Shown: positions 3,619 to 31,194, counted from the stretch's first letter. The stretch is DNA of 64,000 nucleotides from Verrucomicrobiia bacterium (GCA_963664225.1 OY760937.1:1728001-1792000); one strand, 5' to 3'. Made by a program: numbers and translations. Notes: a model not told the origin generated them from the letters alone.

Positions 3619-4317
3619 ATGCACGGAATTGTTTTTGCCCCACACCTGCTGGCAGCAGCCAGTTTGGACTCCAAAGGTCTGGACCTCTCCAGCATTGCGG
3701 TGGGCTGGTTCGATGGTTTGGTCGTCCTGATGCTCGTTGCGGGCTTGCTGCGGGGGCGTCGCCGGGGCATGTCGGCGGAGTTGCTGGACCTTATTCTGTG
3801 GATCCTGATTGTGGTGGTGGGCGGATTGGGACACTCCGCTTTGGGCAAGGTGGTCTCGAACATCACAGGCACAGGTCTGATGTTCTCTTATATTGTCTCC
3901 TATCTGGGAATCGCCATATTCCTGGGCTTCATTTTCACGATGCTCAAGCACGGCGTGGGTGAAAAACTCATCGGCAGCGACGTGTTCGGGAACCTCGAGT
4001 ATTACCTGGGCATGTGTTCCGGCATGATCCGTTTTTTCTGCATGGTGTTCATGCTCATGGCGGTTCTTAACGCCCGGTTGTACACCAGCGACGAATTGAA
4101 GGCCCAGATCAAATACCAGGAAAAAGAACTCGGCAGCGTCTTTTTCCCCACCGTGGGCATGATGCAAAAGAGTGTCTTTCAGGATTCGTTCGTCGGGAAG
4201 TTCACCAAGGACAACCTCTCCATGCTGCTGGTGACTCCCATGCAGCCGGAAGCGCCCAAGGAAGGCATTGGCCACCGTCGTGAAAAAGAGGTCAACGACG
4301 CCCTGGGCATCAAGTAA
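3619..4317 (+). CDS. CvpA family membrane protein
   Basis: FD.LV....GLLRGRRRG..EL pattern and about four hydrophobic helices. Confidence 0.7.
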   Translation: MHGIVFAPHLLAAASLDSKGLDLSSIAVGWFDGLVVLMLVAGLLRGRRRGMSAELLDLILWILIVVVGGLGHSALGKVVSNITGTGLMFSYIVSYLGIAIFLGFIFTMLKHGVGEKLIGSDVFGNLEYYLGMCSGMIRFFCMVFMLMAVLNARLYTSDELKAQIKYQEKELGSVFFPTVGMMQKSVFQDSFVGKFTKDNLSMLLVTPMQPEAPKEGIGHRREKEVNDALGIK

Positions 4318-6250: not shown

Positions 6251-8489
6251 TTATCCCGAAGGGATTACATCATTCAGGCCGGGGTTGCGAGGAACGAGCT
6301 ACCCCGGGTTGCGCACGCCCACGCACCACCAACTCTGTAGGAGTTGGATCAATCCCATACATGCCGTTCGTCGGATTCAATTTCGGATCGTTTTAAAAGG
6401 ATTGCGCGGACGGGACGATTGCGGGTGAGGTTGATCGAACGTGGCTGGATGATCCGCATCCGGAATCGTGGCACGTCCCGTTCCAGTCTGGCGGACATGG
6501 TGGCTTAATTTCCATACAACCACTGCGGCACCAAATTTCCATCTTATTATCCCGAAGGGATTAAATCATTCAGACCGGGGTTGCGAGGAACGAGCTACCC
6601 CGGGTTACACATGCCCACGCACCACCAACTCTGTAGGAGTTGGATCAGTCCCACACATGGCGTTCGTCGCATTCAAATTCATATCGTTTTAAAAGGATTG
6701 CGCGGACGGGACGATTGCGGGTGAGGTTGATCGAACGTGGCTGGATGATCCGCATCCGGAATCGTGGCACGTCCCGTTCCAGTCTGGCGGATATGGTGGC
6801 TTAATTTCCATACAACCACTGCGGCACCAAATTTCCATCTTATTATCCCGAAGGGATTAAATCATTCAGACCGGGGTTGCGAGGAACGAGCTACCCCGGG
6901 TTACACATGCCCACGCACCACCAACTCTGTAGGAGTTGGATCAATCCCATACATGGCGTTCGTCGCATTCAATTTCGTATCGTTTTAAAAGGATTGCGCG
7001 GACGGGACGATTGCGGGTGAGGTTGATCGAACGTGGCTGGATGATCCGCATCCGGAATCGTGGCACGTCCCGTTCCAGTCTGGCGGATATGGTGGCTTAA
7101 TTTCCATACAACCACTGCGGCACCAAATTTCCATCTTATTATCCCGAAGGGATTAAATCATTCAGACCGGGGTTGCGAGGAACGAGCTACCCCGGGTTGC
7201 GCATACCCACGCGCCACCAACTCTGTAGGAGTTGGATCAATCCCATACATGGCGTTCGTCGCATTCAATTTCGTATCGTTTTAAAAGGATTGCGCGGACG
7301 GGACGATTGCGGGTGAGGTTGATCGAACGTGGCTGGATGATCCGCATCCGGAATCGTGGCACGTCCCGTTCCGGTCTGGCGGATATGGTGGCGGTATAAT
7401 CTCCATTCAACCGCTTCGGCGCCGGATTCCCATTCCATTATCCCGAAGGGATTAAATCATTCAGACCGGGGTTGCGAGGAACGAGCTACCCCGGGTTGCA
7501 CATGCCCACGCGCCACCAACTCTGTAGGAGTTGGATCAATCCCATACATGGCGTTCGTCGCATTCAATTTCGTATCGTTTTAAAAGGATTGCGCGGACGG
7601 GACGATTGCGGGTGAGGTTGATCGAACGTGGCTGGATGATCCGCATCCGGAATCGTGGCACGTCCCGTTCCAGTCTGGCGGATATGGTGGCGGTATAATC
7701 TCCAATCAACCACGGCGGCACTGGATTTCCATCTCAATATCCCGTAGGGATTAAATCATTCAGCCCGGGGTTGCGAGGAACGAGCTACCCCGGGTTGCGC
7801 ATACCCCCCCACACCACCAACTCTGTAGGAGTTGGATCAGTCCCACTCATGTAGTTCTTCGCATTCAATTTCGTATCGTTTTAAAAGGATTGCGCGGACG
7901 GGACGATTGCGGGTGAGGTTGATCGAACGTGGCTGGATGATCCGCATCCGGAATCGTGGCACGTCCCGTTCCAGTCTGGCGGATATGGTGGCTTAATTTC
8001 CATACAACCACTGCGGCACCAAATTTCCATCTTATTATCCCGAAGGGATTAAATCATTCAGACCGGGGTTGCGAGGAACGAGCTACCCCGGGTTGCGCAT
8101 CCCCCCCCCATCACCAACTCTGTAGGAGTTGGATCAGTCCCACACATGGCGTTCGTCGCATTCAATTTCGTATCGTTTTAAAAGGATTGCGCGGACGGGA
8201 CGATTGCGGATTGCGGGTGAGGTTTATCGAACGTGGCTGGATGATCCGCATCCGGAATCGTGGCACGTCCCGTTCCAGTCTGGCGGATATGGTGGCCGTT
8301 TAATCTCCAATCAACCACTGCGGCACGGGATTTGGATCTCATTATCCCGAAGGGATTAAATCATTCAGACCGGGGTTGCGAGGAACGAGCTACCCCGGGT
8401 TGCACATGCCCACGCACCACCAACTCTGTAGGAGTTGGATCAGTCCCACTCATGTCGTTCTTCGCATTCAATTTCGTATCGTTTTAAAA
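6251..8489. repeat. Tandem array of ~296-307 bp units (7 full + 1 partial): REP-like hairpins plus 3' end of a Y1 transposase gene
   Basis: Unit starts at 6251, 6547, 6843, 7139, 7438, 7737, 8035, 8342; hairpins ATCCC-GAA-GGGAT, CCGGGGT...ACCCCGG, CCAACTC-TGTAG-GAGTTGG. Confidence 0.97.
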
Positions 8490-8526
8490 ATTCACGGTAT
8501 TCTGATTTATGGGCAATCTTCCTCAA
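8440..8526 (-). pseudogene. C-terminal remnant of IS200/RAYT-type (Y1 HUH) transposase; shorter versions in every array unit
   Basis: Translates to RKIAHKSEYREFLKRYEIECEERHEWD*, resembling the F.EEYR.FL..YEI.FDERY.WD C-terminus of this family. Confidence 0.75.
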
Positions 8527-8580
8527 TGTCTCCCAGCCCGCACGCTCCCGCACCGGCCAGGCAGCGGGGTGGACAAAAGC

Positions 8581-8694
8581 TCCGATTGTTGACCTGCAGT
8601 GAAAAAGGGTTTAAATCCCATACATGCGACGAATTAAGAATGGATTCCGGCCGGTCCAATTCACGAACCGCTGGTCGCATTGTCAAAGTTGGGC
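8581..8694 (+). promoter_or_regulatory. attI-like cassette leader with candidate promoter
   Basis: TTGACC (8589)-N16-TTAAAT; inverted repeat ATGCGAC (8624)/GTCGCAT (8674); GTTGGGC core at 8688-8694 just before the first cassette ORF; homologs at 26610-26812 and 28493-28606. Confidence 0.55.
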
Positions 8695-8705
8695 TTCTGA
8701 TCGGT

Positions 8706-9002
8706 ATGAAAGCGCGCTCCATGTTCCTGCTGTCCCTAATTCTGATGTTCGGGGCACTGCTTATGGTGCTTCGGGGACGGTCTCAACTTAACGAGTCTTT
8801 TCAGGCTTGGCATAGTGGCGAGCATGAGGTTTTTCGGCAGTTTGCCCATCGAGGTGGATGGTTTATTTACCCTGCTTGGGCGCTCGCTGTCGGCGGCGTG
8901 GCATGCCTGTTCGCCTCGTACCGCAGACACGAGCCCGCGTGGCGATGGACGGTGGTGGCCCTGCTTGTGCTCTTCCTCCTTTTCGGCCTCGCGCCCGTAT
9001 GA
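8706..9002 (+). CDS. Cassette-borne small membrane protein (98 aa)
   Basis: Three hydrophobic segments; lies between attI-like core and attC; frame conserved in the duplicate. Confidence 0.7.
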   Translation: MKARSMFLLSLILMFGALLMVLRGRSQLNESFQAWHSGEHEVFRQFAHRGGWFIYPAWALAVGGVACLFASYRRHEPAWRWTVVALLVLFLLFGLAPV

Positions 9003-9009
9003 AACCGAA

Positions 9010-9135
9010 GTTCAACCAGTTCACCACACTGAACTGCCGCCAAGCGTTGCAGTTTCGATGCGCCGGGTTCTTCGGGCGTTGCATTTGCTGGCAGCTCCCG
9101 TTTACGGCGCCCGTCGGTGAGCCAGAGCGTTAACC
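9010..9135 (+). other. attC site
   Basis: R'' GTTCAAC ... ttcacc/ggtgag L boxes ... R' GTTAACC, directly after a stop codon. Confidence 0.7.
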
Positions 9136-9152
9136 GCTATACATCACGCACT

Positions 9153-9440
9153 ATGAAATTCTTTACCACCCCCGATGACAAATTTGTGCATCTTGCAGAC
9201 GATGACAAGCAGCGGGCTGCGGCTTTGGACCTTCTGGAGAGTTCTCGCTCGGCCTATTATTTTGGCGGGCTCCTGGTCATCGCGGTCGCGGCGTGCTTGG
9301 AATTGAGCGGGCACGGTATGGGAGGTTTCGCCATTTTTGGCGTATTGTGTACTTGTCTTGCCTTCAAGTATGAGTCAGACATACGGACACTTAGGATGGT
9401 TGACAATATGCGGAAGAGATATGAAACCAGAGTTAGTTAA
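9153..9440 (+). CDS. Cassette-borne small membrane protein (95 aa)
   Basis: ORF bounded by attC sites; two hydrophobic segments; conserved in the duplicate. Confidence 0.7.
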   Translation: MKFFTTPDDKFVHLADDDKQRAAALDLLESSRSAYYFGGLLVIAVAACLELSGHGMGGFAIFGVLCTCLAFKYESDIRTLRMVDNMRKRYETRVS

Positions 9441-9513
9441 CAAAACGCTCCAGGCAATCGCCGTCAAGCGCTTCGGTTGGCATGTCGGCTGTGCCTGATC
9501 TTGCTCGTTAGGC
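9435..9513 (+). other. attC site
   Basis: R'' AGTTAAC overlapping the stop codon, caggca/tgcctg arms, R' GTTAGGC. Confidence 0.8.
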
Positions 9514-9522
9514 CTCTTTTAT

Positions 9523-10038
9523 ATGTCGCGCGCGAAGGTCAGATGGATTTGGGTTTGCAGCGCGGTCGCCGTCTTGATATTGGCGGCTGTGGCGTTGGTT
9601 TGCTGGCACGGCGCAGCCGAGCCTCTCGGGAACTTTCCGATTTCGCTCCATGGTACAACCAACGATCCGATACGTGGATTGGTGGCCTCCTTCAGCGTGA
9701 CCAACGAGAGCCGGATGAGCATTTACTACTGTATTTGTCCGGTTCAAGTGAAGTCGGACGGTGCATGGCCAGACTTGCGGATTCCGCGCAGCGGCGGCAG
9801 TGAGTTGGCATCGGGCGGGGCTGACGTGTTTTCTGTCGTGGCGCCGGCAGCCGCGCAAGAGTGGAGAGTTCCGGTGGTGTGGGGATACAGACCCACAGGG
9901 TATCGGTCCGTCACGGGACGGGTGAAATACAATCTCCGCTTGAATTGGGACCGGCTGCGACATGGACGGTTCCCAACGCTGGACAACCACGCACAGTTCA
10001 CGCTGCATGCCAGCTATTCCCCGACGTTCAGCAAATGA
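9523..10038 (+). CDS. Cassette-borne hypothetical protein with N-terminal TM/signal segment (171 aa)
   Basis: ATG about 10 bp after the attC R' box; conserved in the duplicate; own attC not found. Confidence 0.7.
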   Translation: MSRAKVRWIWVCSAVAVLILAAVALVCWHGAAEPLGNFPISLHGTTNDPIRGLVASFSVTNESRMSIYYCICPVQVKSDGAWPDLRIPRSGGSELASGGADVFSVVAPAAAQEWRVPVVWGYRPTGYRSVTGRVKYNLRLNWDRLRHGRFPTLDNHAQFTLHASYSPTFSK

Positions 10039-10186
10039 GAAACGGCTTTCATGGTTTCTGAGCTGTCGGAGTAAAGGGATTCGCCGGGCGCAGGACAAAA
10101 TTCAGGAAGCTGGTAAAAGCCTAAACCATACGAACCCAGCCAAGACGCCAATCGGCGTTGTGGGGCATATAATCCGGTGCGGTGGC

Positions 10187-10638: not shown

Positions 10639-11580
10639 ATGAGCCAGAACACTATGACCACTATCTACGCTGGTTTGGATATTGCCAAGCTGAGTCTTGA
10701 TCTCCAACTGGCCGGTCGTTCCCACCATCTGCCCAATACCGCCGCCGGTCATCGCCAGCTCGTCAAACTCCTGGCGCAGCATCCCGGCGCTCACGTCATC
10801 TGTGAAGCCACCGGCGGCTACGAGCGTGAGGTGGCTGACGCCCTCCATCATGCCAGCATTCCTGTCAGCATCATCAATCCCGCCCGCGTCCGGCATTTCG
10901 CCCGCGCCCAGGGACAACGGGCCAAAACCGACCGTATAGATGCCGCCGTCCTCTCCGCCTATGGGCAGGCCTTCGCCCCCAAACCCACGCCCGCGCGTTC
11001 CGAGGTGGAGGAGCAGTTGACCGAACTGGTTCGCCGCCGCACTCAGATCCTTGATCTGCTTATTAGCCAGCGCCATCAGATCGAACGCCTCACGCTGCCC
11101 AAGTTGCGCCGCCAGGCCCAGAGCCTGCTGCGTCGATTGGAACGGGATCTGGAGCATATCGAGACCCAACTCAAAGCGCTGCGCCAGAAAACCACAGAAT
11201 TGGATGAGCGCGCAAAGAAACTCGAGGCTATTACTGGGGTGGGCGCGATTACCGCCTTGGGGGTTTTGGCTGAGCTGCCCGAGTTGGGCACGCTCAATCG
11301 GGGGCAGGCCGCCGCCTTGGCCGGACTGGCTCCACATCCTCGAGAAAGCGGCCAGTGGCAAGGCCGCCGCTCCATCGGTGGCGGAAGAGCCGCCGTTAGA
11401 CGTGCCCTCTACATGGCCGCCCTGGTGGCTGCGCGCTGCAATCGCCAACTCAAGGAGTTCTAGGAACGACTCCGATTGGCGGGCAAGCCCGCCAAAGTCG
11501 CGCTCACCGCCGTCATGCGCAAACTCATTGTCCTGATGAACCAAATCCTTAAAAACCCAGATTTTGCACTCTCAAATTAA
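10639..11580 (+). pseudogene. IS110 transposase with internal nonsense codon
   Basis: GLDIAK, CEATGGYE, AKTDRIDA, RESG motifs; TAG at 11461-11463 in EF*ERL, then frame continues GKPAKVALTAVMRKL to TAA 11580. Confidence 0.88.
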
Positions 11581-24288: not shown

Positions 24289-24717
24289 ATGTATAAAAAA
24301 ATCCTCGTCGCCCTCGATAATACGCATGCGGACGAAAGTCTCCTCCCGCATGTGGCGCGGATGGCGGCAATATGCGGCGCGGAACTGCTCCTGGTGCACG
24401 TGGCGGATGGCTGGGCCGCGCGCAATTACGAGCGCTTTCAATTGCAGGAGTCCGAGGAGATGAAAACCGACCGCGCCTACCTGGACCAAAAGGCGGAGGA
24501 ACTCCGTGCCCAGGGATTGAATGCCACCGCGCAGCTCGCGCTTGGAAATCCGCCCGAAGAGATTCTGAAAATATCCGAGATCGAGAATTGCGACCTCATC
24601 GCGATGACCACCCATGGGCACCGGTTCCTGGGGGATTTGCTTTACGGAAGCACCATTTCAAAGGTTCGGCATCACGCGCAGGTTCCCCTCCTGATCGTCC
24701 GCGCGCAGAAGGTTTAA
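24289..24717 (+). CDS. Universal stress protein
   Basis: MYKKILVALD...DLIAM..HG......GS......PLLIV. Confidence 0.9.
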   Translation: MYKKILVALDNTHADESLLPHVARMAAICGAELLLVHVADGWAARNYERFQLQESEEMKTDRAYLDQKAEELRAQGLNATAQLALGNPPEEILKISEIENCDLIAMTTHGHRFLGDLLYGSTISKVRHHAQVPLLIVRAQKV

Positions 24718-24993
24718 GCCCCTCGCAAATATTCATCCCCCGAGAAGGATAGGATGAAACTGATGGTGCTGCAGAGACTGTTGAAACAGGAGTTGGGCTC
24801 ACCGTGTGGCAATGATCCATTGTGACCTTGCCTCCGTACGGCGTCCGGCATTATCCACCCGGAGCAATCCTGTAGGCGTTGAAGCAAATTCGCATCCCGG
24901 CGTTGTCGCACGATCCGAATCAGCCCACGGACGTGCTGAAGGTCGATGTGGACGAGGACGGCAACGGCGGCGGTAAAGAAATTGGTGAGGTGT

Positions 24994-25086
24994 GATCAAC
25001 GCTCCGACTCAGGCACGCTGGGCCAATGATGTTCTGCTGCCAACTGAGACGCGATCCCAGCGTTGCCTGCAGCCGGTTTGTTGGAC
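24994..25086 (-). other. attC site
   Basis: R'' GTCCAAC, caggcaacgctggg/cccagcgtgcctg arms, R' GTTGATC. Confidence 0.85.
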
Positions 25087-25090
25087 TGCC

Positions 25091-25480
25091 TCACTCAAGC
25101 TCGCTTTCTTTCAATGCCATCTTCATCGGCACTCCAGCATCCGCAATTTGGCGTATCATGCCAGCCTGAGCCGAGTTCGCCACATGATTGGTAGCATCAA
25201 CGAACAACACTACTGCGGCACTGACCCTCTTGAAGCGTGCACACTCCGACTTTAATTCATCTGCGGTCATATACTTCTTGTTCACAAATACGGCACCCGT
25301 CGCATCGATCTTGACCTTGGCCCACTCCGAGACTGAGGGTGCGGGTGAACCTGCGGACTGCCCCGGGAATACTCCGCTGCTTTGGTTCGCAGGGGCTTCG
25401 GAGTTGGTTGACTGGGTCTCCTGTTTGCACCCGGCAACCACAAAAAGCACAGCGCATCCTATTAGTAATGGGATTTTCAT
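25091..25480 (-). CDS. Cassette-borne lipoprotein with ExbD/TolR-like C-terminal fold
   Basis: VVAGC lipobox; VKIDATGAVFVN...ADEL pattern; bounded by attC sites. Confidence 0.65.
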   Translation of the reverse strand: MKIPLLIGCAVLFVVAGCKQETQSTNSEAPANQSSGVFPGQSAGSPAPSVSEWAKVKIDATGAVFVNKKYMTADELKSECARFKRVSAAVVLFVDATNHVANSAQAGMIRQIADAGVPMKMALKESELE

Positions 25481-25495
25481 ATGATATTTATTCGT

Positions 25496-25561
25496 GTCCA
25501 ATGCTCAAGGTGACCCACGAGCGTCCGCAGGGCGCGAGTTGGGTCCACCGTATGGTTGGAA
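25496..25561 (-). other. attC site with degenerate R'
   Basis: R'' TTCCAAC, ggtggaccca/tgggtcacc arms, R' ATTGGAC. Confidence 0.75.
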
Positions 25562-25981
25562 CTTTCGTCTATGTCGAACGAGGTCTCTCTTGATCCCAAA
25601 GACAACTAACGACGGCAAAATGAGTGCCACCAGGCCACATGAGATGATCTCATTCTTCAGAAGCGCGTCAGGAGCTTCGAGAACTGATGTTCTTGGAGCG
25701 TCCGGATCGAAGAAGACAACCAGCGCAACGCTGGGTCGGAGTTTGCCGCGTTCTGGATTCGGCATGCCCGTTTGTGTCTGACCCGTGTAAACACGATTCT
25801 TTACAGTATATTGGTAGCGAACCGTTTTGTGGAAGCTGACCGTCGCTTCGGTCACAGCACCCTGGCAGTGACTCGCGTGTTTCGTGAGCCGCCAGAATGT
25901 GGGAATATTCAAGCTGCCTGTCCCGACCGCCGTGATGAGCGCAAGAATCGGCCAAAATGTGATGAGGACGCCTCTATTCAT
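25505..25981 (-). CDS. Cassette-borne membrane protein, DUF3592-like
   Basis: TM helix, beta domain (VRYQYTV....TG, VFFDPDAP.TSVL), second TM; ORF reads into the attC. Confidence 0.6.
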   Translation of the reverse strand: MNRGVLITFWPILALITAVGTGSLNIPTFWRLTKHASHCQGAVTEATVSFHKTVRYQYTVKNRVYTGQTQTGMPNPERGKLRPSVALVVFFDPDAPRTSVLEAPDALLKNEIISCGLVALILPSLVVFGIKRDLVRHRRKFQPYGGPNSRPADARGSP

Positions 25982-25989
25982 GTGCCTTG

Positions 25990-26048
25990 GCCCAACGCCA
26001 ACGTCAGCGTTGGGGCGGAACCCCATTCGTTGCGCCGCCTGGTTCGGC
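25990..26048 (-). other. Degenerate attC site
   Basis: R'' GCCGAAC ... R' GTTGGGC between two cassette ORFs; arms pair poorly. Confidence 0.5.
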
Positions 26049-26591
26049 TTTTATCGGCCAGTACCTGGCATCACGCGTAAGAACCAGCTCCCCGTTTTTA
26101 TACACTGACAATCGTGAGAATGACTCCGTGTCCGAATAGGTTCCCACAGAAATCTCCATAAATTCTCCATGTGCGCCAGATGATGCGGTGAGCCGCTTTT
26201 CGGGGTACACAACAACTGTGCTCACTGCAAGACTGCCGCCGGTAATCCCCCAGGACTTTATGGCCGAAGCCTTCTCATCATATGCTATGACGGCGCGCAG
26301 GGGCTCTTTGACGTATTGGGAGTCCATGCTGCACACGATATATTTGCCGCCAATCGTTTTCATGGTCACCACGGATTCTTCTGTGAAGGCCCGGCCGTCC
26401 CGGAGCTTGAAAGCAGAGCTGCACTTGGCAACCTTCCAGAATGGCAACGATGCCAGTTCAGTGCGCAGCGCGTTGGTGTCACCAGGGGCCGCGACCAAGG
26501 TATTGAATTGCTCTAGTGTCATCGGATCCTGACCCCGCGCGACGCCCGCGATAAGCAACACCGAGAAGTAAATAAGTAAAGTTGTTTTCAT
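26004..26591 (-). CDS. Cassette-borne secreted hypothetical protein (195 aa)
   Basis: Signal peptide MKTTLLIYFSVLLIAGVARG; follows the attI-like leader. Confidence 0.7.
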   Translation of the reverse strand: MKTTLLIYFSVLLIAGVARGQDPMTLEQFNTLVAAPGDTNALRTELASLPFWKVAKCSSAFKLRDGRAFTEESVVTMKTIGGKYIVCSMDSQYVKEPLRAVIAYDEKASAIKSWGITGGSLAVSTVVVYPEKRLTASSGAHGEFMEISVGTYSDTESFSRLSVYKNGELVLTRDARYWPIKAEPGGATNGVPPQR

Positions 26592-26609
26592 AATGCGATT
26601 AAAGTGACA

Positions 26610-26812
26610 TACCGTCTTTGATTATGCGCCGAGCAACTCGTATCTTGGACCGGGCAGAGTCCATTCTCAATTCGTCGCATATACGGAGTTTAAACCCTTT
26701 TCCAATGTTGGTCAATGTCAGAGGTTTGCCCACGCCGCTCGCTGGCCGACGTGGGAGTGAGCGGGCTGGGAGACATTGAGGCAGATTGTCCGTAAATCAG
26801 AATACCGCGAGT
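26610..26812 (-). promoter_or_regulatory. Diverged attI-like leader, homolog of 8490-8694
   Basis: Shared blocks caatgtctcccagcccgc, ttgacc...aaaagggtttaaa, atgcgacgaatt.agaatgga, cgcat..tcaaag; GTT core degenerate. Confidence 0.55.
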
Positions 26813-27113
26813 TTATAAAAGGATACGAAATTGAATGGGACGAACGCCATGTATGGGACTGATCCAACTCCTACAGAGTTGGGGGGGGGTATGCGCAACC
26901 CGGGGTAGCTCGTTCCTCGCAACCCCGGTCTGAATGATTTAATCCCTTCGGGATAATGGAATGGGAATCCGGAGCCGAAACGATTGAATGGAGATTATAC
27001 CGCCACCATATCCGCCAGACCGGAACTGGACACGCCACGATTCCGGATGCGTATCACCCATGCAACCCTGAGTGGAATGCAATCATCCAGCGCCGGGTCG
27101 CGAGGCACGAGCT
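26778..27113. repeat. tnpA 3' remnant plus REP unit (inverted relative to the 6251 array) and a partial opposing REP
   Basis: Plus strand encodes KSEYREFIKGYEIEWDERHVWD*, followed by the same three hairpins and linker. Confidence 0.85.
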
Positions 27114-27148
27114 TTATTCCGACAGCTCAGAAAACACGAAAGCAGTTT

Positions 27149-27664
27149 TTATTTGCTGACTGTCGGGGAATAGCTGGCATGCAGCGTGAACTGTGCGTGG
27201 TTGTCCAGCGTTGGGAACCGTCCATGTCGCAGCCGGTCCCAATTCAAGCGGAGATTGTATTTCACCCGTCCCGTGACGGACCGATACCCTGTGGGTCTGT
27301 ATCCCCACACCACCGGAACTCTCCACTCTTGCGCGGCTGCCGGTGCCACGACAGAAAACACGTCAGCCCCGCCCGATGCCAACTCACTGCCGCCGCTGCG
27401 CGGAATCCGCAAGTCTGGCCATGCGCCGTCCGACTTCGCTTGAACCGGACAAATACAGTAGTAAATGCTCATCCGGCTCTCGTTGGTCACGCTGAAGGAG
27501 GCCACCAATCCACGTATCGGATCGTTGGTTGTACCATGGAGCGAAATCGGAAAGTTCCCGAGAGGCTCGGCTGCGCCGTGCCAGCAAACCAACGCCACAG
27601 CCGCCAACATCAAGACGGCGACCGCGCTCCAAACCCAAATCCATCTGACCTTCGCGCGCGACAT
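27149..27664 (-). CDS. Cassette protein, duplicate of 9523-10038
   Basis: Near-identical 171 aa translation. Confidence 0.7.
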   Translation of the reverse strand: MSRAKVRWIWVWSAVAVLMLAAVALVCWHGAAEPLGNFPISLHGTTNDPIRGLVASFSVTNESRMSIYYCICPVQAKSDGAWPDLRIPRSGGSELASGGADVFSVVAPAAAQEWRVPVVWGYRPTGYRSVTGRVKYNLRLNWDRLRHGRFPTLDNHAQFTLHASYSPTVSK

Positions 27665-27673
27665 ATAAAAGCG

Positions 27674-27752
27674 GGCTATCGTTCAGGCTCAGGCACAGCC
27701 GACATGCCAACCGAAGCGCTTGACGGCTACTGCCTGGAGCGTTTTGTTAACC
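27674..27752 (-). other. attC site with degenerate R'
   Basis: R'' GGTTAAC, ctccaggca/tgcctgag arms, R' GATAGCC. Confidence 0.75.
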
Positions 27753-28034
27753 AACTCTGGTTTCATATCTCTTCCGCATATTGTCAACCATCCTAAGTGT
27801 CCGTATGTCTGACTCATACTTGAAGGCAAGACAAGTACACAATACGCCAAAAATGGCGAAACCTCCCATACCGTGCCCGCTCAATTCCAAGCACGCCGCG
27901 ACCGCGATGACCAGGAGCCCGCCAAAATAATAGGCCGAGCGAGAACTCTCCAGAAGGTCCAAAGCCGCAGCCCGCTGCTTGTCATCGTCTGCAAGATGCA
28001 CAAACTTGTCATCGGGGGTGGTAAAGAATTTCAT
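27747..28034 (-). CDS. Cassette protein, duplicate of 9153-9440
   Basis: 95 aa; differs only at the last residue. Confidence 0.7.
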   Translation of the reverse strand: MKFFTTPDDKFVHLADDDKQRAAALDLLESSRSAYYFGGLLVIAVAACLELSGHGMGGFAIFGVLCTCLAFKYESDIRTLRMVDNMRKRYETRVG

Positions 28035-28051
28035 AGTGCGTGATGTATAGC

Positions 28052-28177
28052 GGTTAACGTTCTGACTCACCGACTGGCGCCGTAAACGGGAGCTGCCAGC
28101 GAATGCAACGCCCGAAGAACCCGGCGCATCGAAACTGCAACGCTTGGCGGCAGTTCAGTGTGGTGAACTGGTTGAAC
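28052..28177 (-). other. attC site
   Basis: Copy of 9010-9135. Confidence 0.7.
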
Positions 28178-28184
28178 TTCGGTT

Positions 28185-28481
28185 TCATACGGGTGCGAGG
28201 CCGAAAAGGAGGAAGAGCACAAGCAGGGCCACCACCGTCCATCGCCACGCGGGCTCGTGTCTGCGGTACGAGGCGAACAGGCATGCCACGGCGCTGGCAG
28301 CGAGCGCCCAAGCAGGGTAAATAAACCATCCACCTCGATGGGCAAACTGCCGAAAAACCTCATGGTCGCCACTATGCCAAGCCTGAAAAGACTCGTTAAG
28401 TTGAGACCGTCCCCGAAGCACCATAAGCAGTGCCCCGAACATCAGAATTAGGGACAGCAGGAACATGGAGCGCGCTTTCAT
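28185..28481 (-). CDS. Cassette protein, duplicate of 8706-9002
   Basis: Near-identical 98 aa translation. Confidence 0.7.
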   Translation of the reverse strand: MKARSMFLLSLILMFGALLMVLRGRSQLNESFQAWHSGDHEVFRQFAHRGGWFIYPAWALAASAVACLFASYRRHEPAWRWTVVALLVLFLLFGLAPV

Positions 28482-28492
28482 ACCGATCACAA

Positions 28493-28606
28493 GCCCAACT
28501 TTAACAATGCGACCAGCGGTTCGTGAATTGGACCGGCCGGAATCCATTCTTAATTCGTCGCATGTATGGGATTTAAGCCCTTTTCCACTGCAGGTCAACA
28601 ATCGGA
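28493..28606 (-). promoter_or_regulatory. attI-like leader, copy of 8581-8694
   Basis: Near-identical, with GTTGGGC core. Confidence 0.55.
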
Positions 28607-28630
28607 ACAGGTCGCGCACAATGCCGGATG

Positions 28631-28747
28631 CGTCCCATCCGCGCAATCCTGTAGGGTTGCAATCTTTCAGCCCCGGGTCGCGAGGAACGAGCCACCCGGG
28701 GTCATCGTCCACCCTCCATAATTTCCCCAACGCAGTAAACGTTGAAT
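28631..28747. repeat. Diverged REP unit
   Basis: gcaatcctgtagggttgc; ccccgggtcgcgaggaacgagccacccgggg; caacgcagtaaacgttg. Confidence 0.7.
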
Positions 28748-28820
28748 CAAATTCGCATCCGGCATTGCAGCGCGATCTGAATCGGCCAGAGGGCGTGATG
28801 AGTGACTTCGACGCGGCTTC

Positions 28821-28889
28821 GTTCAACCCGTGAAAGCAAATAATCCTTCGCTCCGCTCCGGATTATCTACATTCCTTTTTTTGTTGGGC
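28821..28889 (-). other. Possible attC site
   Basis: R'' GCCCAAC, ataatcc/ggattat arms, R' GTTGAAC at the gene end. Confidence 0.5.
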
Positions 28890-29540
28890 GGCTCGCATTT
28901 CACGTCGATAACGCATCATGACCAGATGGATGCAAGGTGGCACTGCTAGAAGCAAACCCACCACGGCAATGATACAGGCGAGAGAATGCGAACATAAATG
29001 CACAAAAAGGCCGCTGATGCTGGTCCTCTGCGACAACCTAATCCGTAGGCTCGGCTTCGTCGCATCGATAGCAGCCATCGGCTTGTCGTTCTGAAATGAA
29101 ATCTCATAGTTCTTGCCGACTTCGCCCGTGAACGTGAGCGTGTGATATGCAACTTTCTCAGCATAAAAAGCTGTGTCTGGATTAGGCGAAATCCCCTCGG
29201 CGAGAATATTCCCATCACAAATGATGCTTTGCCTAACCGGAATATGAGTCGGAAGGTCACGAATCACTCCGGGTGCATTCGTTCTCGGACATACGACATC
29301 AACCCAATAAACGCCCTTGAATGCCACGGTGAACCCGTTGGTAAAAGAGAAATCCCCATCATAACGAATGCTCTTCTCAAAGGCAGGTTTGGCCATCCGC
29401 TCATTACGCGATGCTAACTGCCAAACTAATACTGCTGTCACTAACGATAAAAGCGCGAGAACTGTGAACACAATCGTTGAGGATTTCAGTCCCAACATGG
29501 GTTCTGACGTCATCGGATGGTCTGTTGTGAAAACATTCAT
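28863..29540 (-). CDS. Cassette-like membrane protein with N- and C-terminal TM helices; start uncertain
   Basis: Lower-GC ORF directly after a GTTAGGT core (29554-29560). Confidence 0.65.
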   Translation of the reverse strand: MNVFTTDHPMTSEPMLGLKSSTIVFTVLALLSLVTAVLVWQLASRNERMAKPAFEKSIRYDGDFSFTNGFTVAFKGVYWVDVVCPRTNAPGVIRDLPTHIPVRQSIICDGNILAEGISPNPDTAFYAEKVAYHTLTFTGEVGKNYEISFQNDKPMAAIDATKPSLRIRLSQRTSISGLFVHLCSHSLACIIAVVGLLLAVPPCIHLVMMRYRREMRAAQQKKECR

Positions 29541-29553
29541 GACATCCACTGCC

Positions 29554-29705
29554 ACCTAACATTAAGCAGTGTATGCGCCGCACCCTAGGTTGCAAGCGCG
29601 CAGACTTGTCCAGAGCCTCACGAGGGCATGGCGCAGACATTGCTTAACGTTGGTCAACATCAGAGCTTCTGACCACCCCGCTGGCTGGCCGGTTTGGGAG
29701 CGGAG
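29554..29705 (-). promoter_or_regulatory. Third type of attI-like leader
   Basis: Shares ctccc..accggccag.cagcggggtgg.ca.aagctc.gat..ttgacc with 8545-8594; tgcgcc/ggcgca inverted repeat; GTTAGGT core. Confidence 0.45.
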
Positions 29706-29722
29706 AGCAGAGGGCGGGTCGC

Positions 29723-30143
29723 TGATCCAACTCCTACAGAGTTGGTGGTGCGTGGGCATGTGTAACCCGTGGTAGCTCGTTCCTCGCAACCCCGGTCTGA
29801 ATGATTTAATCCCTTCGGGATAATGAGATGGGAATCCGGTGCCGCCGTGGTTGATTGGAGATTATACCGCCACCATATCCGCCAGACTGGAACGGGACGT
29901 GCCACGATTCCGGATGCGGATCATCCAGCCACGTTCGATAAACCTCACCCGCAATCGTCCCGTCCGCGCAATCCTTTTAAAACGATACGAAATTGAATCC
30001 GACGAACGGCATGTATGGGACTGATCCAACTACTACAGAGTTGGTGGTGCGTGGTTATGTGCAACCAGGGGTAGCTCGTTCCTCGCAACCCCGGGCTGAA
30101 TGATTTAATCCCTTCGGGATAATGAGATGGCAATCCGGCGCCG
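29723..30143. repeat. ~1.4 units of the 296-bp repeat, inverted relative to 6251-8489
   Basis: Near-identical to array units. Confidence 0.93.
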
Positions 30144-30372
30144 CAGATGGATGAACAGGATGGGGTGTGGATTGGCAGGGACGGGAATCCGCAGATGGAG
30201 ACCGGGAGGAACGGACTCAACCGCAAAGAGCACAGTGCCGGGAAAAAGGCAATGGACCACTGAGGCACGGAGGGGGACAAAATAAATTTATGCGTTTTAG
30301 TCCTGCACCCCAGGCAAACAGTGCGCCTGGTTTCAAATTGTGTTTTTCACGCTCTCTGGTTAGATTGGAAGG

Positions 30373-31194
30373 ATGTTGTTGGAGTTCACAAAAATGAACG
30401 GGGCGGGGAATGACTTTGTGCTGGTGGATAACCGCGAGCGCAAGATTCAACTGACCCGGACGCAGGTGACGCAATTATGCCACCGCCAGCGGGGCGCGGG
30501 CGCGGATGGCCTCATCCTGCTCGTGCCGTGCGCGAGCGGGCGCGCCGATTGGGCCTGGGATTTTTATAACAGCGACGGCAGTTCCGCGGAGATGTGCGGC
30601 AACGGCGCCCGTTGTTTCGCCCGGTTCGTCCAGAAACTGACCGGTTCCGCCAACACCCTCTCCTTCGAGACCACGGCCGGGGTGATCTCCGCGCGGATTC
30701 TTGGGGACCGGGTGGCGGTGAACCTGACCGCGCCAACGAACCTCCAACTCAACCTGAAGGTGCCCCTGACGAGCGGCGTGCAGACCGTTCACTCGATCAA
30801 CACCGGCGTGCCCCATGCCGTGCTGATGGTGGAGGATGCGGACAAGGCGATGGTCCAATCCTGGGGATCGGAACTGCGTTTCCACGCCCAGTTTCAACCG
30901 AAGGGGACGAATGTGAATTTCGTGCAGGTGACCGGCCCTGGGGCGATCCGGGTGCGGACCTATGAGCGCGGTGTGGAAGGGGAAACGCTGGCGTGCGGCA
31001 CGGGAGTGACCGCTTCGGCCCTGATTGCCGCAAAGGTGCACGGGTTCAGCTCGCCCGTTCGGGTGCGCGTGCAGGGCGGAGACACGCTGGAAGTGAGCTT
31101 CAAGCAAAATAACGGCGCTTTCGAAGAGGTTTGCCTGACCGGCCCCGCGGATTTTGTTTTCAAGGGGCAAATCGAGATTGGACTGGCCAAATAG
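30373..31194 (+). CDS. dapF: Diaminopimelate epimerase
   Basis: GAGNDF, EMCGNG, ERGVEGETLACGTG. Confidence 0.96.
   Translation: MLLEFTKMNGAGNDFVLVDNRERKIQLTRTQVTQLCHRQRGAGADGLILLVPCASGRADWAWDFYNSDGSSAEMCGNGARCFARFVQKLTGSANTLSFETTAGVISARILGDRVAVNLTAPTNLQLNLKVPLTSGVQTVHSINTGVPHAVLMVEDADKAMVQSWGSELRFHAQFQPKGTNVNFVQVTGPGAIRVRTYERGVEGETLACGTGVTASALIAAKVHGFSSPVRVRVQGGDTLEVSFKQNNGAFEEVCLTGPADFVFKGQIEIGLAK

Follow-up and report, generated by a model that had tools for sequence, protein, structure and literature searches.

How do small open reading frames (ORFs) that each end like an integron cassette come to stand behind copies of one promoter-like leader, in a chromosome that encodes no integron integrase? 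The question is raised by the interval between usp and dapF in a Verrucomicrobiia bacterium (GCA_963664225.1 OY760937.1). Here three minus-strand modules (A, B and C) combine repetitive extragenic palindromic (REP) sequences and 3' remnants of a Y1 transposase gene (tnpA tails) with a leader and small ORFs. The window, that is the whole stretch of 64,000 nucleotides (nt) analysed, comprises bases 1728001-1792000 of the single-contig 5.78-Mb genome (G000 where a handle is needed); positions refer to the window unless marked as genome. A sequence-only reading had described the three modules, with a fourth at 8490-10076, as integrase-less integron platforms that a REP-associated transposase could disperse. 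All four modules are present, both flanking genes are recognised by Pfam and the interval holds seven ORFs, all on the minus strand. The arrays are probably attC-site clusters that lack an integron integrase (CALINs) that kept and multiplied an attI- and promoter-like platform, loaded by an integrase since lost or acting in trans. The proposed dispersal by the transposase finds no support.

Cassette arrays without an integron integrase

Recognition of attC sites was anchored in relatives that retain the enzyme. Integron integrases are common: with model TIGR02249, 115 of the 401 phylum genomes searched and 16 of 41 relatives pass the cut-off. The array sides of 24 intI loci served as a control. 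Covariance model R1 was built from nine clear attC sites adjoining intI in three other genera, with compensatory changes in 13 of the 24 predicted pairs. In 341 kb of relatives, the positive control, it returned 159 matches that form long arrays on the expected strand, and it also matches sites in the leader modules of this genome. Model R2 was rebuilt from 99 R1 matches, all of them in relatives, and run with filters off over 96 kb consisting of the window and four leader loci. Sixteen matches were obtained at E<=5. The 11 rows at E<0.05 correspond to 10 distinct sites, all of which lie within leader modules, after cargo ORFs and on the cargo strand; elsewhere in the window nothing falls below E 1. 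Across the whole genome (150 of 1808 first-look candidates scored), 6 of 11 attC matches at E<=1 are in leader modules. The same attC family adjoins intI in relatives.

The succession of sites follows the logic of a cassette array, in which each R' has, after its G, six bases that are already part of the following cassette and are expected to pair with the R'' of that cassette. Of the 48 variable positions in 12 adjacent pairs, 39 match, where permutation gives 27.5 (P about 5e-5), and half of the pairs (6/12) are perfect. Both examples picked out beforehand are borne out, namely GTTAACC, which precedes R'' GGTTAAC, and ATTGGAC, which precedes R'' GTCCAAC; in the former, the R' of the weak site at 28052-28177 pairs with the next R'' at 7/7 positions. 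The third site of module C has a single-strand DNA fold z of -2.47. Matches to both models and significant cassette logic thus bear out the reading of these ORFs as integron cassettes. The picture of each module as a leader followed by one to three ORFs with attC sites stands for modules B and C, but not for the ORF at 27149-27664, which has no attC, nor for module A, which is headed by a leader remnant and whose ORF has no attC match. Full-leader heads among the three arrays therefore number two.

The description of the arrays as integrase-less agrees with a genome-wide search. The best match to TIGR02249 in the 5.78-Mb genome reaches 82 bits against a cut-off of 265, the matches skip model positions 184-244 and none lies near a leader. 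Cury et al. 2016 (PMC4889954) use the term CALIN where at least two attC sites cluster within 4 kb and the neighbourhood lacks an integron integrase. Module C has three sites within 1.1 kb and module B one strong and one weak site, and intI is absent. Among relatives, a genome of the same genus (G001) carries a truncated intI (a 221-bit fragment) and one attC site. In G006, which belongs to the same family, intI is intact and accompanied by at least 20 attC sites.

Small integrase-less arrays that have no full leader lie at genome 1680, 2833, 3107, 4118-4119, 4880 and 5221 kb. Five of them (loci L085 and L087-L090; 1-4 attC sites each) span 4118065-4119441, 5221156-5221713, 2833417-2834073, 1680095-1680757 and 3107882-3107983. 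The 1680-kb array has the 3' half of a leader and two REP doublets upstream.

The leader and its counterparts in relatives

A genome-wide count of the leader (about 125 nt) by BLAST and a hidden Markov model (HMM) gives 12 full copies and two partial ones with the 3' half only. Three of these lie in the window (at 8562, 26740 and 28623) and nine others in four genome regions. The alignment of 11 copies, which omits the truncated twelfth (genome 847.8 kb), has 56 invariant columns, all within about 100 nt. Conserved blocks follow in the order TTGACC, 17 nt, TAAA(T/C)(C/T), ATGCGACGA, CCGGTCCAA and a terminal ...ATCAAAG. Conservation stops at ...CAAAG, and in 7 of the 11 aligned copies the next bases are TT and a variable, RRRY-like tetramer (hexamers TTGGGC, TTGGCA, TTATGT, TTCGAG, TTAGCC and TTAGGC). 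Both TTGACC and a GTT-type core, which had been attributed to the leader, exist, but the crossover-like GTT sits at the leader 3' end, away from TTGACC. Downstream of this border the sequence differs at every copy. Where a leader is followed by a first attC site (n = 6), the junction pairs with the R'' of that site at 15 of 24 positions, where 9.3 would be expected (P 0.04); pairing is perfect for GTTATGT/ACATAAC, and another copy pairs at three of four variable positions.

This layout recurs at platforms that adjoin an integrase gene. In G001 the platform reads TTGAAT-16-TAAACT, 66 nt, then ...ACTG before TTAGGC, with GCCTAAC as the first R''; in G006 it ends ...ATTG before TTCGGC, with first R'' GCCGAAC. 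The resemblance of the leader to true attI sites thus holds for layout but not for sequence, in which no similarity to any intI-adjacent attI was detected. The G006 attI region also recurs without intI on a second contig (C6), at 89% over 130 nt (L106 3277-3406 vs L102 2504-2633). That copy runs from near the -35 element to the G/TT crossover, is followed by two attC sites and adjoins a carboxylesterase gene upstream.

The leader is present in three contigs of one metagenome. By BLAST it is absent from 40 relatives, the same genus included, and two leader patterns gave zero matches in the species collection. One metagenome contig (L043) has the leader and the distal cassette in common with genome 1958-1959 kb, with three other cassettes between them, each with an attC site. 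Such a difference next to the leader is the turnover expected at an attI.

We propose that the leader is an integron platform minus its enzyme. Each small ORF would be promoterless and end in a folded attC site, and a sigma-70-like promoter (TTGACC, 17 nt, TAAA(T/C)(C/T)) would read into the cassettes. An attI-type crossover, between ...CAAAG and TTRRRY, would lie about 70 nt beyond this promoter. The arrays would have been loaded by an integron integrase that has since been lost from the lineage or that acted in trans; they may now be fixed, with some sites beginning to decay. The REP doublets and tnpA tails would be relics of a REP-associated Y1 system and would offer homology for duplication and rearrangement, as in module B. 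From sequence we infer the promoter activity and attI function of the leader, and likewise the order of events. A promoter scan flagged TTGACC-17-TAAACT of module C, at 9/12.

Several observations weigh against this proposal. The junction statistic given above is weak. ACGGTA, not TT, follows the module C leader, and ATAGTA follows a cargo-less leader on metagenome contig L041. Downstream of 4 of the 12 leaders model R2 finds no attC even at E 5. The -10 element is without its final T (TAAATC) in 8 of the 11 aligned copies, and the promoter scan flagged the module C copy only. Likeness of the leader to intI-adjacent attI was not found by BLAST in 40 relatives or by HMM on integron loci. Finally, 5 of 22 sites of this genome have an altered GTT in R', compared with 9 of 99 from the relatives; the thresholds for choosing sites differed between the two sets.

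Two other roles for the leader were considered and set aside. Changes in its putative stems are not compensatory, so no claim of a structured RNA is made. A peptide frame through it was rejected, as the substitutions inspected are not at third positions and few copies are in frame with the ORF. Rfam at gathering thresholds gives 0 matches in the window; it is not known to include an attC family.

REP linkage, origin of the copies and rival explanations

The repeats around the leaders belong to a REP system with a recognisable transposase gene. Among nine Y1 genes in the genome, an intact IS200-like one (genome 3202484-3202957; PF01797, 73 bits) ends at its C terminus in ...YEIEWDERHVWD before the stop. 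Inverted hairpins flank it at 3202452(+) and 3202960(-), with CCAACGCTGTAGGCGTTG upstream and a near-complement after the stop, and doublets, that is a core of about 60 nt in both orientations, also flank it on both sides. Its last codons and stop recur in the window at 26839-26862 and 30001-30024 (+), and in both places the hairpin CCAACTCCTACAGAGTTGG, or a variant close to it, comes next. At <=3 mismatches the genome contains 77 matches to the hairpin motif, and GTAG is present both in the hairpin loop and in the core. The genome thus has what marks REP sequences and REPINs (REP doublets forming hairpins): a Y1 gene between inverted repeat copies, and high-copy GTAG palindromes with doublets and tandem runs. 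The phrase 'REP with or without tnpA tail' in the sequence-only reading was correct, because copies of the gene tail, with hairpin and core, are found in the window. The tail comprises the last 50-100 nt of the Y1 gene and its stop (26760-26862 and 29977-30024), followed by hairpin and core.

Two repeats of this system have features of their own. The eight tandem units at 6251-8489 are head-to-tail and 84-94% alike, each built from the final ~50 nt of the Y1 gene together with REP hairpin, core and middle part; a gene tail within a tandem run is odd for arrays of REP or bacterial interspersed mosaic elements (BIMEs). The longest copies of the 'ext' repeat (24898-24994 (+), with 11 other genome copies) look like the end of a coding sequence: ~45 C-terminal residues of a protein, finishing ...DALRYLIASKGRAMAVRKLIGV before the stop. 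A search of the genome turned up no full-length parent gene.

Of the 12 leaders, 7 have a REP hairpin no more than 400 nt upstream, against 0.06 expected; six of the seven share one orientation, and the copies are not all independent. The other five have no REP hairpin within 400 nt. Runs of heptamer or octamer repeats (ccctcagc and gccctccgc types) lie between the REP hairpin and several leaders, for instance at genome 1959974-1960070 and 846250-846330, and their number differs between leader copies. The claimed linkage of the platform to a REP/tnpA end is therefore supported for the hairpin but hardly for the tail, which adjoins the leader in only two full copies of this genome and in one metagenome contig. 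A unit of REP doublet, tnpA tail and leader is found in the window at 8.2-8.7 kb and 26.6-27.1 kb. With 'ext' in front, the contiguous unit is intact in L041, a locus at which this genome has no such unit, and in the window it is interrupted by module B.

Module B shows how one copy arose. It (27112-28606) is a 97.5% copy of 8581-10076 and hence not an independent module. It sits inside a REP doublet, of which 26853-27112 and 28604-28801 are the two parts and which is uninterrupted in L041, and it lies between direct repeats of about 77 nt (27036-27112 and 28617-28692). The copy starts just upstream of TTGACC and ends ...AATAAAG, so that neither end is a REP hairpin or a GTT site. Because of these ends and the direct repeats, module B looks like the product of homologous or illegitimate recombination, not of Y1 transposition.

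The other border of the REP-bearing unit lies at a cassette boundary. Its 'ext' end, (G/A) followed by TTG(A/C)TCACACC, comes immediately after an attC-like 3' arm in all four 'ext' copies with this end (genome 337164, 845142, 1753000 and 5188509); a regular expression for the boundary gave 12 matches, these four and eight in unrelated sequence. Behind the last attC of module C, the unit at 24865..24990 read on the minus strand starts TTGATCACACC immediately. The unit thus sits in arrays as a cassette would, which favours integrase-type or homologous recombination.

It is possible, though we lean against it, that the whole platform ('ext', REP doublet, tnpA tail and leader) is itself a mobile, cassette-like unit. 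The block begins TTGATC after the G of an attC and ends ...CAAAG before TTRRRY, so an integrase in trans could excise or insert it; the attI-like leader would then stand in for attC. If so, new promoter-equipped docking sites could be seeded round the chromosome. The result would be an integron spread over many heads, each competent for expression, with no enzyme of its own; the REP system would supply homology and perhaps single-strand hairpin chemistry. The circular or tandem junction of such a unit (CAAAG then TTGATCACACC) is absent from the genome at <=3 mismatches.

Other explanations differ in what they make of the leader and the repeats. It is unlikely that the leader is a mobile promoter travelling with a REP-linked unit rather than an attI, with cassettes that arrived by secondary-site insertion and were kept for expression. 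Cassettes are reported in a preprint to insert efficiently outside att sites and to be expressed near a resident promoter (10.1101/2022.09.11.507474). In sequence the leader resembles no known attI region, its cargo-less copy in L041 adjoins miaA with no GTT after it, and most leaders are close to a REP hairpin, all of which fits a mobile promoter. Against this, the insertions at 12 copies are all at one leader base, which indicates a dedicated site and not a loose secondary one, and the bona fide attI of G006 also exists in a second, intI-less version with matching borders. Dispersal by the Y1 transposase, in which units bounded by REP hairpins moved as single strands together with leader and cassettes, appears quite improbable. 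Inward-facing hairpins do bound the modules, as they bound the transposase gene; the doublet-tail-leader unit recurs in the window and at another locus in a related metagenome genome, and the genome retains an intact Y1 gene of that family. But the sole recent copy has no hairpin at either end, the direct doublet repeats flanking it are a mark of homologous recombination, the REP-bearing unit starts at a G/TT cassette boundary in four loci and five leaders stand away from any hairpin. No sequence trace of hairpin-ended transposition of modules was seen, and this part of the sequence-only reading is not upheld.

We give hardly any credence to the view that nothing here is integron-like and that the modules are lineage-specific operons in a repeat-rich intergenic hotspot, with a duplicated promoter as leader. 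Such 'no attC, ordinary operons' was the first reading, as a crude detector of AAC...GTT palindromes, strict and relaxed, found no site in 24700-30400, folds of four inter-ORF gaps do not surpass those of shuffled sequence (z +0.15 to -1.4) and the ORF gaps of module C are only about 22 nt. On control arrays, the same detector missed most true sites (6 in locus L071 vs about 20 by model). The gaps looked too short because the attC sites overlap ORF 3' ends, as the second site of module C (25496-25561) does with the 173-aa ORF. Contradicting this view, models R1 and R2, trained on true arrays, find bulged sites at just these overlaps, cassette logic is significant and the same site family stands beside intI in relatives.

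Known systems, cargo and layout of the locus

CALINs are as common as complete integrons; their origin is debated and they are usually thought to be silent stores. For CALINs and their single-site counterparts (SALINs), the origins under debate are intI loss, rearrangement and secondary-site insertion (PMC4889954, 10.1101/2022.09.11.507474), and the cassette promoter Pc is described as unable to drive CALIN cassettes (PMC4889954). Integrons typically have one attI, and IntegronFinder 2 detects no attI outside class 1 (PMC9024848). The present clusters resemble CALINs and SALINs in their attC-bounded cassettes, lack of intI, few cassettes per cluster, unknown cargo and several clusters per genome, but differ in that most are headed by one conserved promoter/attI-like leader. 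With the sedentary chromosomal integrons of G006 and G001 they share the attC family (GCCNAAC...GTTNGGC, about 60-135 nt) and the platform layout (promoter, about 70-100 nt, G/TTRRRY); here, by contrast, the integrase is missing, the attI sequence is another and there are many short arrays instead of one long one. The intI-less attI copy of G006 is a further likeness, being an attI segment that ends at G/TT and is followed by cassettes. That genome has one extra copy vs 12 to 14 here, retains its integrase and shows no REP linkage at the copy.

The REP, BIME and REPIN system (REPtron) is described in PMC8266576 as one Y1 gene between inverted hairpins with GTAG and tens of intergenic copies, in doublets and tandem runs. 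The same elements occur here, but with long units (about 300-400 nt), some of which include the final 50-100 nt of the transposase gene, and with junctions to the leader and to integron cassette boundaries.

The IS1111-attC group and group IIC-attC introns are mobile elements that home to attC sites. The REP-bearing unit is likewise a mobile family living inside cassette arrays, but it starts at the G/TT crossover and not inside the attC hairpin.

New here is the multiplied promoter/attI-like head; integrase-less attC clusters are already well described. Listings and abstracts of the literature yielded no report of multiplied attI platforms or REP-linked arrays. Standard tools ignore attI outside class 1, so these arrays would be filed as plain CALINs. 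At least 12 heads of one promoter/attI-like sequence, with different cassettes behind each and no integrase in the genome, would mean that the part of an integron responsible for docking and expression is able to multiply and persist alone. They would offer a natural case of how cassettes are maintained and expressed after enzyme loss and, in the 125-nt leader together with defined attC sites and the integrases of named relatives, a testable substrate.

Features of the locus are collected in Table 1. Relatives offer no comparable usp-dapF site: dapF-dapA-dapB is kept in 4 of 9 relatives' loci, with usp and mntH upstream in none, and the same-genus contig begins 170 nt before dapF. Contigs from four sequencing runs break at the repeats. 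The only joint in these contigs that skips part of the interval, from 27089 to 28634, with 38 letters between, matches a paralogous doublet beside the intact transposase gene and is thus not an empty site.

Table 1. Features of the usp-dapF interval and the fourth module (window positions; R' and R'' are boxes of attC)
Feature	Position	Strand	Details
Eight tandem units, ~297 bp each	6251..8489	-	tnpA tail and REP doublet part; upstream of fourth module
Fourth module	8562..10076	+	Leader (TTGACC 8589-8594, ...TCAAAG 8688); same three ORFs as module B; attC 9435-9513 (counterpart of module B attC) with R' GTTAGGC
usp	24289-24717	+	PF00582, 102 bits
REP hairpin (CAATCCTGTAGGCGTTG) and 'ext' repeat	24865..24990	+	12 BLAST copies in genome
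attC site 3, module C	24994-25086	-	R2 24.3 bits, E 0.0028; R'' GTCCAAC, R' GTTGATC
Cassette ORF, 129 aa	25091..25480	-	Lipoprotein-like N-terminus; no family over cut-off; single genome copy
attC site 2, module C	25496-25561	-	R2 30.6 bits, E 9.7e-5; R'' TTCCAAC, R' ATTGGAC
Cassette ORF, 173 aa	25505..26026	-	Weak DUF3592 match, below cut-off
attC site 1, module C	25990-26048	-	R2 23.7 bits, E 0.0038; R'' GCCGAAC, R' GTTGGGC
Cassette ORF, 195 aa	26004..26591	-	Secreted-type; 65 clusters including its own at E<=0.001
Leader, module C	26616..26740	-	TTGACC 26710-26715, TAAACT 26687-26692, end ...TCAAAG 26616
Inner blocks of module C leader	26672-26680, 26645-26653	-	ATGCGACGA and CCGGTCCAA, respectively
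tnpA tail (3' remnant of Y1 gene)	26760..26862	+	Stop 26860-26862; divergent from module C leader
REP doublet	26853..27112	+	Hairpin 26864-26882, ~60-nt core, middle part, part of inverted arm
Cassette-type ORF, 171 aa, without attC	27149..27664	-	Copy truncated at 27112 by REP doublet
attC, module B	27674-27752	-	R2 32.8 bits, E 3e-5; R'' GGTTAAC, R' GATAGCC
Cassette ORF, 95 aa	27747..28034	-	
Weak attC-like site	28052-28177	-	R2 11 bits, E 3.3; R'' GTTCAAC, R' GTTAACC
Cassette ORF, 97 aa	28185..28478	-	Membrane protein
Leader, module B	28499..28606	-	TTGACC 28593-28598, TAAATC 28570-28575, end ...TTAAAG 28499, then TTGGGC; upstream part cut at 28606
Inverted arm of REP doublet and part of 'ext'	28604..28801	+	Hairpin 28728-28744
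ORF, 230 aa (module A)	28863..29555	-	No attC found
Remnant of leader-upstream part, module A	29646..29720	-	Up to TTGACC (29652-29657)
1.5 tandem units of REP hairpin, core, middle part and tnpA tail	29722..30154	+	Tail 29977-30024
dapF	30373-31194	+	PF01678, 172 bits

Just 3' of the fourth module, at the place where its third cassette ought to have its attC, lies a truncated ORF of an IS110-family transposase (10639-11463 (+); PF01548 71 bits, PF02371 67 bits). The motif GCCTAAAC is found at about 10130-10140.

The cargo behind the leaders amounts to 23 proteins, each single-copy; the exceptions are the three proteins duplicated with module B and one partial match at 28% identity. NCBIfam and PADLOC, run on 20 cargo proteins, gave none over any cut-off. 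The 195-aa protein of module C is absent from 40 and 400 other genomes of the order and phylum, respectively, but public data contain 64 further clusters at 44-88% identity, a patchy distribution consistent with a travelling cassette. One leader, at genome 1957135-1957626 (L012 3135-3626, minus strand), heads a membrane-anchored acyl-carrier-like protein (PF00550, 28 bits), followed by ORFs that by eye are MBOAT-like and DltD-like, a cargo unlike the small orphan cassettes elsewhere.

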